A DNA stretch of 64,000 bases. Source: Ostreococcus lucimarinus (taxonomy: Eukaryota). Positions 43,656-46,324 of the stretch are shown here, in pieces. The translations under genes and the position numbers were made by a program. The notes beneath the pieces were generated by a model. That model ran no database searches. It was not told where the DNA came from and worked only from the letters and a program-made list of their open reading frames with translations. The stretch lies in NCBI GenBank assembly GCA_000092065.1, contig CP000590.1; one strand, written 5' to 3'. Each line of letters opens with the position of its first letter. Positions within the stretch are counted from its first letter, which is position 1.

Positions 43656-44339
43656 TCAGAACTTTGTAGTAATTCGAAAAGTCGCGGCGACGATCGCCCC
43701 ACCCACGATTCGCCGCCACCACCGTCCACGCCGCGGCTTCTCGCCCTTATCCGACGCGGCGTCGCGCGTCGAGAGCGCGACCTCCGCGACGACGTCCTCT
43801 TCCGACCGCCCCTGCGGGCATCCGTTCGCCTCGAGATATCGCAACACGCCCTCGCTCGCGCCGCCCGCGTACTTGACCCAAAAGTCTCTGTCTTTCGCCA
43901 ACCACGCCGGCACCGGCGACGCGCGCGTCGTCGTCTCGCGCTCCGTCTCCGCCTCCGTCTCCGCCTCCGCCTCCGCCTCCGCCTCCGCGTCGCCCTCGCG
44001 CGTCACCACCCCGATCTGAAAATCTCTCAGCTGCGTCCACGCCCGCGCGCTGTGAATCTCCTCGAACTCATCGCTCGCCTCTTTCCCGAGCGCCCGCGCG
44101 ATCGCCAGCGCCGTCGACACCTGCCCCGCGTTGTTGAATCCCGGGTGCGTCGTCGCGAACGCCGTGATGTCGAACACGCGCTCGCGCACCACGATCCATC
44201 CGTCCGCGAGGCGCGCGTGCGCCGCGACGTCCTCGCGCGTGTACTTTCGCCACCTCGCGCGCTCGTCGTCCGTCGGCGCGCGCCGGAGCGCGTCGACGAC
44301 GGCGAGGTCGACGGCGACGTCGCGCCCGGACGCGTGCAT
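43656..44339 (-). CDS. cytochrome b5-domain protein with nitrate-reductase-type heme domain and a short hydrophobic C-terminal tail (possible tail anchor)
   Basis: Heme domain YTREDVAAHARLADGWIVVRERVFDITAFATTHPGF...EIHSARAWTQLRDFQIGVV parallels the NIA cyt b5 domain ([38 protein letters not shown]...AVHSAKAWKQLEPFYIGDV). (AE)n linker. C-terminal RWWRRIVGGAIVAATFRITTKF. ATG at 44337-44339. The ORF upstream of it overlaps NR2 exon 1 and is discounted. Confidence 0.65.
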   Translation of the reverse strand: MHASGRDVAVDLAVVDALRRAPTDDERARWRKYTREDVAAHARLADGWIVVRERVFDITAFATTHPGFNNAGQVSTALAIARALGKEASDEFEEIHSARAWTQLRDFQIGVVTREGDAEAEAEAEAETEAETERETTTRASPVPAWLAKDRDFWVKYAGGASEGVLRYLEANGCPQGRSEEDVVAEVALSTRDAASDKGEKPRRGRWWRRIVGGAIVAATFRITTKF

Positions 44340-44658
44340 CGTCGCGCCGTTCGAGCGCGGACGACCGGACGCGTCGTCGGCGGCGCGCGGACGCGCGGCC
44401 GCGCGCGCGCGGACGCGTCGCGCGTCGCGCGCGCGCGTCGCGCGTCGCGTCGTGGCGCGACGACGTCGACGGGCGCGAAGCGTCACTTTGGTAAAAAAGG
44501 AAAAAATGCGTATGGGCAAACAGTATGACGCTTCGGCGACGCTTGGAGATTCCGAAACGACTCGGTCGACGGCTGGCGTCGACGCGACGCGACGCGCACA
44601 ACGCGGCCCTCGCGCGGTCGACGCGGCGTCGCGAGACTCGAAGCGTCGTCGTCGAGTC
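44340..44658. promoter_or_regulatory. divergent intergenic/promoter region between the cyt b5 gene (-) and NR2 (+)
   Basis: 319 bp with an A-rich stretch (ggtaaaaaaggaaaaaatg) and the 16-mer cgtatgggcaaacagt (44509-44524), also found in the NIA/NII divergent region. Confidence 0.55.
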
Positions 44659-46324
44659 ATGGCGAACGCCGTCGTCGCGATCGTCGCCGCGGGCGCGGGC
44701 GCGTTCGCGGGCAAGCTGCTCGACGGGAAAAAGCGCGAGACGTCGCGAGGCGCGGACGACGCGGACGACGTCGACTTTAAGACGGACGCGAAGTCCAACG
44801 TCGATCACGCGGCGGCGGCGAAAAAGCATCAGTACCTGGCGCAGAAGTACCCGGAGGTGGACGAGCGAGACTTGAAGACGCCGGATAATTGGGTGAAGAG
44901 GCATCCGTGCGTGCGAGACGCGAGGCGACGCGAACGCGGGACGACGAGGACGCGGCGAACGACGACGGCGCGCGTGACTGACGGTGGTTTGCGTCGATCG
45001 TGGTGATAGGAATTTGATTCGTCTGACCGGGAAACACCCGTTTAACGTCGAGGCGTCGCTTCCGGAGTTGTATGATTACGGATTCATCTCGCCGGTGAAC
45101 TTGCACATCGTGCGGAATCACGGCGCGGTGCCGAAGTGCGATTGGGACACGCACAAGATTAACATTTGTGGCAACGTCCCGAAACCGTTCGAGATCGGTA
45201 TGGACGAGTTGGTGAAAATGCCGAGCGACACGTTCCCGTGCTTGGTGGTGTGCGCGGGGAACCGTCGGAAGGAACAAAACTTGGTCAAGTCGTCGATTGG
45301 GTTCTCGTGGGGGCCGTGCGCCATCGGAAACACGTACTGGACGGGCGTACCGCTGCGAGTGTTGCTCAACAGAGCGGGCATTCATAAGCCCGGTCCGGGT
45401 GCGCGATACGTGTGCTTGGCTGGTCCGCAAAACGAATTGCCGAAGGACTACCCCGATCAAGACGGTGGTCCGGGATCGTACGGCACATCCATCGACATGG
45501 AAACCGCGCTCGATCCGACGTGCGATGTCATTGTGGCGTACGAACAAAACGGTGCCAAGCTTCACCCAGACCATGGATTCCCAGTGCGGGTGATCATTCC
45601 CGGTTACATCGGTGGGCGCATGATAAAGTTTTTGAAGGAGATTAAAGTCACCGACAGAGAGTCAAACAACTTTTATCACTTCAACGATAACCGCGTGTTA
45701 CCGCCGCCAGTTGACGCTGAGCGCGCGACCGAGGAGGGATGGTGGTTCAAGCCCGAGTTCATCATCAACCAACTCAACATTAACGGTGCCATCGCGTACC
45801 CGGCGCCCGAAGAAGTCATTCCCAAGTCGCAAAAGACGTACGCCTTCAAAGGTTACGCCTACTCTGGCGGCGGTCGCAAGGTCATTCGCGCCGAGCTTTC
45901 CTTCGATCAAGGCTTGAGCTGGGAATTGAGTGATATTCACACTCGCGAAGAACCGCGATGGGCCGATTTCAGCTCCGGTGACAAGGCCAGGCACTGGTGC
46001 TGGTGCATGTGGACTCTCGAAGTGCCGATTGAGAAGCTCCTCGACAAAAAGTGCGTCGAAGTGTGCTTCCGCGCCGTCGATCAATCCATGAACAAAATGG
46101 ACGAGCGCCCGACGTGGAACGTCATGGGTATGTTGAACAACCCGTGGTACCGCGTCCGCATCCACCACACGCCCACGGGCGACGTTCGCGTGGAGCATCC
46201 GTGCATCGCCGGTCCGACCCCCGGCGGCTGGATGCAAAAGATGGCGGCTAAGGAACCCACCGGAGAACTTCTCTGGGGCTGGGGCGGCCAAGGCACGCCG
46301 GCCGCGCCCCCGAGAGAAGAATAA
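44659..46324 (+). CDS. nitrate-reductase-like molybdopterin oxidoreductase (Moco + dimerisation domains only), two exons, N-terminal hydrophobic segment
   Basis: join(44659..44906, 45010..46324), 520 aa. Exon 1 MANAVVAIVAAGAGAFAGKLL...KTPDNWVKRHP is spliced to NLIRLTGKHPFN..., which aligns residue-for-residue with the NIA N-terminus (NTPDHWVARHPSLVRLTGTHPFN). CAGNRRKEQN and VRVIIPGYIGGRMIKFL conserved. Ends at the position of NR hinge 1; no cyt b5 or FAD domain. An in-frame upstream ATG at 44506 (MRMGKQ...) is an alternative start. Confidence 0.8.
44907..45009 (+). other. intron (103 nt) of the NR-like Moco gene
   Basis: Donor GTGCGT at 44907, GACTGAC at about 44975, acceptor GATAG at 45009. 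The splice joins two track ORFs (44131..45006 and 44984..46324) into a continuous NR-homologous sequence. Confidence 0.8.

Follow-up and report, generated by a model that had tools for sequence, protein, structure and literature searches.

How would a molybdenum protein that lacks the electron-input domains of nitrate reductase (NR) be reduced? The question is raised by a locus of Ostreococcus lucimarinus CCE9901 that lies in a nitrate-assimilation cluster. The window analyzed here, by which we mean the whole 64-kb stretch of contig CP000590.1, encodes a complete NR (NIA). It also encodes a 520-aa protein with molybdopterin and dimerisation domains only, which we name MO, and a stand-alone cytochrome b5 (b5) transcribed divergently from it. 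By tblastn, each NR module is present in exactly two copies in this window: one set is fused as NIA, and the other is dispersed over MO, b5, and the C-terminus of NII. No unassigned heme or FAD exons were found in the 64 kb by the same method. With no redox partner domain of its own, MO would depend on a separate heme protein for its electrons. We propose that MO and b5 make up the core of an NR-type enzyme split into several subunits, in which electrons reach MO in trans by way of a b5-type heme, and we give this proposal an even chance of being right. Read in this way from gene content and conservation, the pair would represent a fissioned eukaryotic NR.

Structure and lineage of MO

The MO coding region runs from an ATG at 44659 to a TAA stop at 46322-46324. 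Its reading frame changes once, and removal of a 103-nt GT..AG intron restores the frame to give 520 aa. The resulting junction (KRHP/NLIRLTG) is confirmed by an intron-less orthologue (L004/P0001) and also agrees with the O. lucimarinus RefSeq model XP_001419925.1, which is 100% identical to MO over residues 68-442. That model is partial (375 aa): it misses both the N-terminal exon carrying the hydrophobic segment and the last 78 residues, among them the WGWGG tail and a portion of the dimerisation domain. The Pfam matches of MO are PF00174 (E 8.7e-52) and PF03404 (E 7.9e-44) and nothing else, the fused cytochrome b5 and FAD/NAD(P)H domains of the NR holoenzyme being absent. MO is 48% identical to the window NIA over 418 residues and ends 30 residues past the GGWM motif, within hinge 1. 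Its residues 1-21 are hydrophobic, with a Kyte-Doolittle mean of 1.66 over 19 residues. A preliminary description of this DNA had proposed such a protein, related to the cluster NIA through its molybdenum cofactor (Moco) and dimerisation domains, stopping at hinge 1, starting with a hydrophobic segment, and paired with a divergent stand-alone b5 319 bp away; all of this stands.

By its sequence, MO is a nitrate-reductase-lineage protein and not a sulfite oxidase. Its best match in the PDB (phmmer) is the Mo fragment of Pichia angusta NR (2BIH, E 2.6e-103), whereas sulfite oxidases match at E 1e-56 to 1e-63 (~1e-60), the plant enzyme 1OGP among them at E 3.5e-56. The residues of the Moco pocket tied to substrate specificity, which the preliminary description had singled out for inspection, are all of the NR type and invariant across the MO family. 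In an alignment with 25-40 NRs, the invariant NR-state residues include the Arg of VRNHG and the Cys and Arg of CAGNRRKEQN, this Cys (Cys164 of MO) being the Mo ligand and this Arg, the second of NRRK, the anion-binding residue. In FNDNRVLP, MO has Asn where sulfite oxidase has Tyr (alignment with 2BIH and 3R19), and WNVMGMLNN carries Met-Gly-Met in place of the sulfite oxidase Arg/Val. The same residues appear in the 3R19 chain, which we take to be an engineered chicken sulfite oxidase variant converted towards nitrate reduction. From structural knowledge of the two enzymes, these pocket positions are presumably linked to NR versus sulfite oxidase specificity. At the positions known to matter for specificity, the MO family shows no changes peculiar to it, the pocket being identical to that of assimilatory NRs, and no peroxisomal targeting signal (PTS1) was found at the C-terminus of MO (..PAAPPREE).

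Roughly 20 database clusters of proteins with Moco and dimerisation domains only, from Ostreococcus, Bathycoccus-like, Micromonas, Pyramimonas, and Pseudoscourfieldia sources, are 61-87% identical to MO, and full-length NRs come after them at ~50-55% identity. Every MO orthologue ends at the tail GELLWGWGGxGxPAAP, regardless of the gene that follows. The dN/dS of MO is 0.077 (window versus L004) and 0.074 (L005 versus L007, both Bathycoccus-like), and that of the neighbouring CNX5 is 0.31; synonymous sites are near saturation in these pairs, so the ratios are approximate. A Micromonas pusilla MMETSP transcript of 1779 nt encodes the whole 521-aa Moco-only protein, and Pyramimonas has a Moco-only transcript as well (entries P0244 and P0015).

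The origin of this family was traced in neighbor-joining (NJ) trees (~300 columns, 200 bootstraps, sulfite oxidase outgroup). The MO clade, which spans the prasinophytes, was monophyletic (97-99% bootstrap) and its inner branching tracked species relationships. Its sister, with 100% bootstrap, was a full-length NR of Prasinococcus capsulatus (P0028, EukProt scaffold3768, truncated at the N-terminus), in which the hinge, GGHLNWGWGGEGSPA, is followed by b5, FAD, and NAD domains. MO and P0028 stood well apart from the sulfite oxidase root, and the deep backbone of the NR tree was unresolved. P0028 is probably the untruncated form of the MO lineage. Because this full-length sister has the same WGWGG hinge, the trees and sequences show that MO descends, by C-terminal truncation, from an old NR lineage of its own and is not a recent duplicate of NIA. 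The phylogeny called for in the preliminary description therefore places MO inside a fully supported clade with a full-length NR, far from sulfite oxidase, and does not support a recent duplication of the cluster NIA. The Mamiellales NIA (window, L005, L007) grouped weakly with red-algal NRs in the NJ tree (69% bootstrap), with a common WNLMGMGNN motif, and not with the other green-algal NRs. The Moco-only clade resembles the "green" NR lineage, and MO and NIA could thus differ in origin.

It is hardly credible that MO is a product of annotation or a gene in decay, either a truncated NIA duplicate or the exons of a normal NIA copy. The RefSeq model is indeed partial, and MO can be read only via an intron; yet dN/dS values of 0.07-0.08, at least 20 orthologous clusters with one tail and different downstream genes, full-length Moco-only transcripts, and a window free of spare heme or FAD exons all speak against it. 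Because of the dN/dS values, the uniform orthologue tails, and the Moco-only transcripts in relatives, both a pseudogene and an NIA spliced onto downstream cyt b5/FAD exons, the two possibilities that the preliminary description had itself raised, are excluded. We also consider it very improbable that MO is non-catalytic (a Moco store or carrier, or a regulatory pseudo-subunit of NIA) or a heme-less sulfite oxidase of the plant type. The Moco plus dimerisation architecture equals that of plant sulfite oxidase, and a review table shows no Moco carrier protein for Mamiellales (PMC4620153). However, the catalytic and nitrate-specific residues of MO are invariant under very strong purifying selection, the Tyr and Arg specific to sulfite oxidase are replaced by Asn and Met, PTS1 is missing, and MO falls phylogenetically inside NR.

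The cytochrome b5 and its linkage to MO

The b5 belongs to a family of ~100 clusters (~125-360 aa) with PF00173 as the only domain, and its named members are all prasinophyte (M. pusilla, Chloropicon, Pyramimonas, and Cymbomonas). In a 31-sequence alignment, the heme histidines His65 and His96 are invariant, as are a 7-residue insertion between them (NAGQVSTALAI) and a second block, PxWLxxDRDFWVxYxGG..LRYL..G.PQG. In the AlphaFold model (pLDDT 78.6), confidence was good for the core, the second block, and the N-terminal extension and low for the C-terminus. The model superposes on ordinary b5 structures with a TM-score of ~0.8 over 86 residues (Foldseek), and the N-terminal extension, insertion, and second block had no analogue in the PDB library searched in this way. 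The b5 is 35% identical to the NIA heme domain (E 5e-16). In BLAST, it scores 55-62 bits versus prasinophyte NR heme domains and 47-48 bits versus house-fly and human b5, and it carries the EIHS signature common to NR heme domains, without the preceding Gly. It thus leans towards the NR type, not decisively, and the "NR-type" label of the preliminary description is kept in this weaker sense. The short hydrophobic C-terminal tail noted there was found (IVGGAIVAATF), short and weak in O. lucimarinus and set in a basic C-terminus.

The pairing of MO with b5 is kept across genera despite rearrangement, in Ostreococcus, Bathycoccus-like genomes, M. pusilla, and a Pycnococcus relative (Table 1). The divergent spacing is 340 bp in M. 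pusilla CCMP1545, and the Ostreococcus-like locus L004 has the same divergent layout. No motif specific to a shared b5/MO promoter was found relative to other cluster promoters, only CG-rich words common throughout the window. An RWP-RK/GAF_NLP/PB1 regulator (NIT2/NLP-like) lies a few kilobases from b5 in M. pusilla (L009:14694-18407) and in Cymbomonas (L014:1-1311).

In the Mamiellales loci L004, L005-L008, and L009, MO and b5 are also linked to a Ser/Thr kinase of the CaMK group whose best PDB matches are CASK, DAPK, and CDPK, and whose N-terminal MGC(A/S)xS motif (MGC or MGQC), of the myristoylation/palmitoylation type, is conserved. By analogy, this kinase could be a candidate regulator, in prasinophytes taking the place of the CDPK/SnRK kinases that act on plant NR. 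A kinase of broadly similar type, also with an acylation motif and possibly orthologous, occurs in the nitrate cluster of a Pycnococcus relative (L016:6104-8086).

The terminal sequences of these proteins also bear on their location. In Mamiellales, the MO N-termini reach 1.5-2.3 on the Kyte-Doolittle scale (19-residue means) and are then followed by Lys/Arg, and the segment of the window MO is conserved in all Mamiellales orthologues. The b5 C-termini have moderately hydrophobic stretches of 15-20 residues with basic flanks. Two b5 proteins of the Pyramimonas type (P0202 and P0203) have no hydrophobic tail; they end in a polybasic run and a CaaX box (..KRRRHRCSIA and ..DRRRKCVIS), which suggests prenyl anchoring. 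Taken together, the terminal signals are consistent with, and not proof of, a MO/b5/kinase module held at a membrane on its cytosolic side.

Electron supply to MO and competing explanations

The question of the electron donor is informed by the Pycnococcus group, in which NIA has a dead Mo site (Pseudoscourfieldia marina, Pycnococcus provasolii, and two environmental relatives, 75% and 65% identical; Table 1). The substitutions are Cys to Ser (ASAGLRGAEL), VRNHG to FHHHS, PDHG to PDLG, GGR to DER, DNR to RTR, and MGM to LGL. The dimerisation domain, the heme motif (HPGG..HS), and the FAD/NAD motifs are kept, and the MO that adjoins this NIA has intact catalytic residues; in the window NIA, the active-site residues are intact. 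Because the dead state is common to proteins only 65-75% identical, the comparison indicates that it is maintained and not a recent decay. In the NJ tree, the Moco domain of these proteins is a long branch drawn to the base. We take them as orthologues of the O. lucimarinus NIA because the two have a near-identical heme domain and a common hinge-2 insertion. The simplest reading of these sequences is that, in the Pycnococcus group, MO gives the nitrate-reducing site and NIA gives the electrons; no other site able to reduce nitrate may be left intact in that cluster. The idea that b5 and dead-site NIA are alternatives to each other, with Pycnococcus types doing without b5, was ruled out, as the locus L015 has both together with MO.

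The preliminary description had looked elsewhere for the flavin donor, to the cytochrome-b5-reductase-type FAD/NAD module fused to NII, which it regarded as the third redistributed module of NR. The module is present, as described; its supposed role was not supported. Its identity with the FAD domains of NRs is 30-38% throughout, with no special affinity (30-31% to NIA and the MO-type NR, 35-38% to other NRs), and its position behind a rubredoxin domain also counts against the idea. NII is normally a plastid-located protein. A better candidate is the FAD-heme half of NIA, because the Pycnococcus types keep that half while the Mo site has decayed.

In the mechanism that we favor, MO would be the molybdenum catalytic subunit, probably a dimer with a complete nitrate-reducing pocket, and its ancestor would be a full-length NR that shed its heme and FAD domains. 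The prime candidate for supplying electrons would be the co-inherited, family-specific b5. The NAD(P)H-oxidising flavoprotein behind it would best be sought in the FAD-heme half of NIA, with a generic NADH-cytochrome b5 reductase as the alternative. In Mamiellales, the complex would be bound to a membrane from the cytosolic side, because MO, b5, and the kinase carry terminal signals resembling lipid or membrane anchors. The expected reaction would be nitrate to nitrite; nitrite to NO could accompany or replace it, as with any NR Mo centre. In this scheme, the substrate, the contact between the proteins, the route of the electrons, the place at a membrane, and the role in the cell are all inferred from the genes. 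The analogy with a multi-component, membrane-tethered Moco reductase drawn in the preliminary description seems reasonable. The fullest version of this proposal is put forward tentatively and is, as a whole, on the unlikely side. It would be an unnoticed heteromeric NR of prasinophytes, in which MO reduces nitrate (possibly as the sole such subunit in Pycnococcus and Pseudoscourfieldia, whose NIA would be a catalytically dead electron-donor subunit), is fed by b5 and/or the NIA half, and in Mamiellales belongs to a membrane-tethered module.

Several observations weigh against a membrane-bound MO-b5 enzyme of this kind. Outside Mamiellales, the MO N-termini are not hydrophobic, and that of the window MO is borderline for a transmembrane helix. 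AlphaFold, run for MO on the orthologue P0002 (84% identical), gave low confidence to residues 1-44 and to the WGWGG tail and no confident helix. The hydrophobic tail of the O. lucimarinus b5 is only 11 residues long. Of the anchoring proposed in the preliminary description, the hydrophobic termini are present, as weak candidates for membrane anchors. The margin by which b5 is of the NR type is small, as some NR heme domains reach only 45 bits against it. The locus L015 holds a dead-site NIA with its own heme domain, MO, and b5, and the separate b5 is then left unexplained. In the Micromonas loci L001-L003 and L011, MO lies outside the cluster with no b5 within 10 kb. In Chloropicon, the b5 family is present away from any nitrate cluster and the best hits included no MO, which means that b5 can occur apart from MO. 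Expression in O. tauri points the same way. In RNA-seq contrasts of infected versus healthy cells (PMC5790953 supplements), the core genes ostta10g00900-00950 and 00980 move together very strongly, whereas MOT1, CNX2, CNX5, b5, and the kinase track them at single time points only. At the time point where CNX2 changes by +4.69, the b5 gene ostta10g01000 changes by +4.2; the kinase gene ostta10g01020 changes by -4.94 while the cluster is repressed, and the presumed MO gene, ostta10g01010, is never listed as differentially expressed (PMC5790953).

In an alternative arrangement, MO would work with NIA, as a heterodimer joined by the dimerisation domains or by reduction through the NIA heme, and would add a catalytic Mo site or replace one, and b5 would be an accessory, serve another acceptor, or act as a tether. 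MO retains a full Mo-co_dimer domain, it stands directly beside NIA and divergent from it in L005-L008, and in the Pycnococcus group it adjoins a NIA that has dimerisation, heme, and FAD domains with a dead Mo site; the Chloropicon b5 without MO agrees as well. In Chlamydomonas, NR passes electrons in trans to ARC/NOFNiR and THB1. We nevertheless regard this arrangement as possible and rather unlikely: it gives no reason for the co-segregation of MO with a b5 family of its own in four lineages or more, MO and NIA are only 48% identical, and a membrane-anchored MO in Mamiellales, if such it is, would be a poor fit with a soluble NIA. A different function for the same pair would be that of a signalling or detoxifying membrane reductase resembling mARC/NOFNiR, acting on nitrite (to give NO), an N-oxide, or an N-hydroxylated compound. 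The Mo centres of NR reduce nitrite to NO, which is established chemistry, and an N-anchored Moco protein with a tail-anchored b5 parallels the mARC / outer-membrane cytochrome b5 / CYB5R layout. The presumed O. tauri MO gene is out of step with the dawn-peaking core nitrate genes, and in one Micromonas-like locus (L011) a globin gene lies directly behind MO. Such a role is nonetheless improbable when the substrate pocket is the same as in assimilatory NRs, the Pycnococcus-group MO may be the only intact nitrate-reducing site of its cluster, and the genes are located among those for nitrate use and Moco supply.

The globin just mentioned is a classical one of 138 aa (L011:11888-12304, plus strand; PF00042, E 3e-22), 256 bp downstream of MO in a very GC-rich genome (74%). 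NR-globin partnerships are known elsewhere (THB1 and NR-2/2HbN), and by analogy this globin may hint at NO chemistry.

The proposed split NR can be set beside known systems. Eukaryotic NR (EUKNR; NIA and 2BIH) and MO have in common the Moco and dimerisation folds, the Mo-ligand Cys, the nitrate-pocket residues, and the location in a nitrate cluster. In contrast to EUKNR, MO has no fused b5/FAD domains, and it has a WGWGG tail at hinge 1, a hydrophobic N-terminus, and its putative heme on a separate, co-inherited protein. Closest in wiring would be the mARC/outer-membrane b5/NADH-b5 reductase system and the NR-ARC (NOFNiR) pair of Chlamydomonas, in which a Moco enzyme without electron-input domains of its own is reduced via a b5-type heme, an arrangement deduced here from genes. 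In the mARC system, the Moco protein is anchored by its N-terminus and b5 by its C-terminus; the corresponding putative signals of MO and b5 are hydropathy based. The Chlamydomonas pair offers a precedent for NR as electron donor to another Moco protein, as proposed for NIA and MO. However, mARC belongs to the MOSC superfamily, with another fold and active site, whereas MO is of the sulfite-oxidase/NR family and is clustered, like b5, with nitrate genes.

Plant-type sulfite oxidase (1OGP) has the same heme-less Moco and dimerisation architecture as MO and differs in its active-site residues (NR type in MO), its PTS1, its separate phylogeny, and its match (E 3.5e-56 versus 2.6e-103). The bacterial sulfite dehydrogenase SorAB (2BLF), like other heteromeric enzymes of the sulfite oxidase family, resembles the pair in that a Moco/dimerisation subunit of the sulfite oxidase family is encoded alongside a small cytochrome subunit. 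SorAB is distant from MO (E ~1e-23, PDB phmmer) and has a c-type cytochrome in a periplasmic, oxidative enzyme, in contrast to a b5-type, eukaryotic, and presumably reductive system on the cytosolic face. Non-canonical EUKNRs have been described in raphidophytes (NR2-2/2HbN) and ichthyosporeans (NR fused to NAD(P)H-NIR domains) (PMC6400420). Like MO, they are evidence that evolution can exchange the electron-input modules at the C-terminus of EUKNR. They are alternative fusions, whereas MO/b5 would be a fission, accompanied in one lineage by a dead full-length NIA.

The surrounding cluster and what the pair would mean

The gene order of the window (Table 1) agrees with the published O. tauri cluster, NAR1-NIA-NII-Cytb5R-NAR2-NRT2-MOT1-CNX2-CNX5 (PMC4620153). 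The FAD/NAD region fused to NII is carried in the literature as a separate gene, "Cytb5R", with its relation to nitrate metabolism unstated; the NII-rubredoxin-FAD/NAD fusion (cytochrome-b5-reductase-like) was also found in L005 and L007. Between MO and the kinase, a small open reading frame (ORF) has homologues at the equivalent position in L004 (L004:10321-10614; 45%, E 7e-21) and M. pusilla (L009:3893-4177; E 1e-12) by tblastn, with a dN/dS of 0.59 and no Pfam match. The CNX2-CNX5 gap holds an uncharacterized gene of two or more exons (window ~41305-41937, plus strand), conserved in L004 (~5270-5790) and in M. pusilla (L009:6912-7652). Its presumed O. tauri orthologue, ostta10g00980, is annotated as "hypothetical protein" and is co-regulated as strongly as NIA, NII, and NRT2 (PMC5790953 supplements).

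Table 1. Positions of the cluster features in the window, and of related genes and gene orders in the loci compared with it
Feature	Position	Strand	Remarks
NIA	28286..31189	-	all five NR domains: Moco, dimerisation, cyt b5, FAD, NAD (Pfam)
NII	31597..34755	+	C-terminal rubredoxin and FAD_binding_6/NAD_binding_1 (Pfam)
MFS/NRT2 transporter	36525..37958		Pfam
MOT1	38123..39550		Pfam
CNX2	39843..41324		Pfam
CNX5	42071..43447		Pfam
Stand-alone cytochrome b5	43656..44339	-	227 aa; PF00173 (E 1.5e-11); identical to XP_001420102.1
b5-MO intergenic region	44340..44658		319 bp; presumed bidirectional promoter
MO exon 1	44659..44906	+	Ala/Gly-rich hydrophobic residues 1-21, acidic linker, NR N-terminal start (..DERDLKTPDNWVKRHP); from translation and splice model
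MO intron	44907..45009	+	103 nt, GTGCGT..GATAG; frame shift between ORFs 44131..45006 and 44984..46324
MO exon 2	45010..46324	+	PF00174, PF03404, conserved C-terminal tail GELLWGWGGQGTPAAPPREE, stop
Small ORF	46486..46767	+	93 aa, two hydrophobic segments; between MO and kinase
CaMK-group Ser/Thr kinase	46988..48781	+	597 aa; Pfam Pkinase; N-terminal MGCAAS acylation-type motif
Kinase, other Mamiellales loci	L004:11001-13070; L005:12279-14297; L007:11713-13710; L009:4323-6581
Dead-site NIA, Pseudoscourfieldia marina	L010:12964-16098		CP150406.1
Dead-site NIA, Pycnococcus provasolii			P0348
Dead-site NIA, environmental relative	L015:10001-13099		P0349
Dead-site NIA, environmental relative	L016:258-3293		P0350
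Gene order, Ostreococcus-like	L004		CNX5 / b5(-) / MO(+) / small ORF / kinase; same as window
Gene order, Bathycoccus-like by GC content	L005-L008		NIA(-) / MO(+) / kinase(-) / b5(+)
Gene order, M. pusilla CCMP1545	L009		NIA .. kinase .. unknown / MO(-) and b5(+) divergent; RWP-RK regulator near
Gene order, Pycnococcus relative	L015		NIA / NAR1 / MO(+) / b5(-), convergent, 91 bp apart
Gene order, Cymbomonas			b5 adjoins NII and RWP-RK regulator

Reviews and genome papers give one nitrate reductase per Mamiellales genome (PMC4620153, PMC2944026), and no description of MO, b5, or the MO-b5 pair was found in the literature searched. In public annotations, these genes appear as "predicted protein", as a partial model, or under the automatic names "nitrate reductase" or "cytochrome b5 reductase".

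Ostreococcus, Micromonas, and Bathycoccus rank with the most abundant eukaryotic phytoplankton, and the use of nitrate has a central place in how they live. If MO is active, these algae would have an extra, differently wired, and possibly membrane-bound entry to nitrate and NO metabolism, and the "NR" signals of metatranscriptomes would blend two enzymes. It would also mean that the textbook fused three-cofactor enzyme underwent a natural fission, with one lineage dividing the labour between a dead-site NIA and a Mo-only protein, and it would provide a natural system for the study of inter-domain electron transfer in NR. If the proposal is true in its fullest version, the MO/b5/kinase module of Mamiellales would be the first gene-level candidate for a membrane-bound NR of eukaryotes, and an active MO would bring concrete candidate genes to the long-discussed membrane-associated NR activity.

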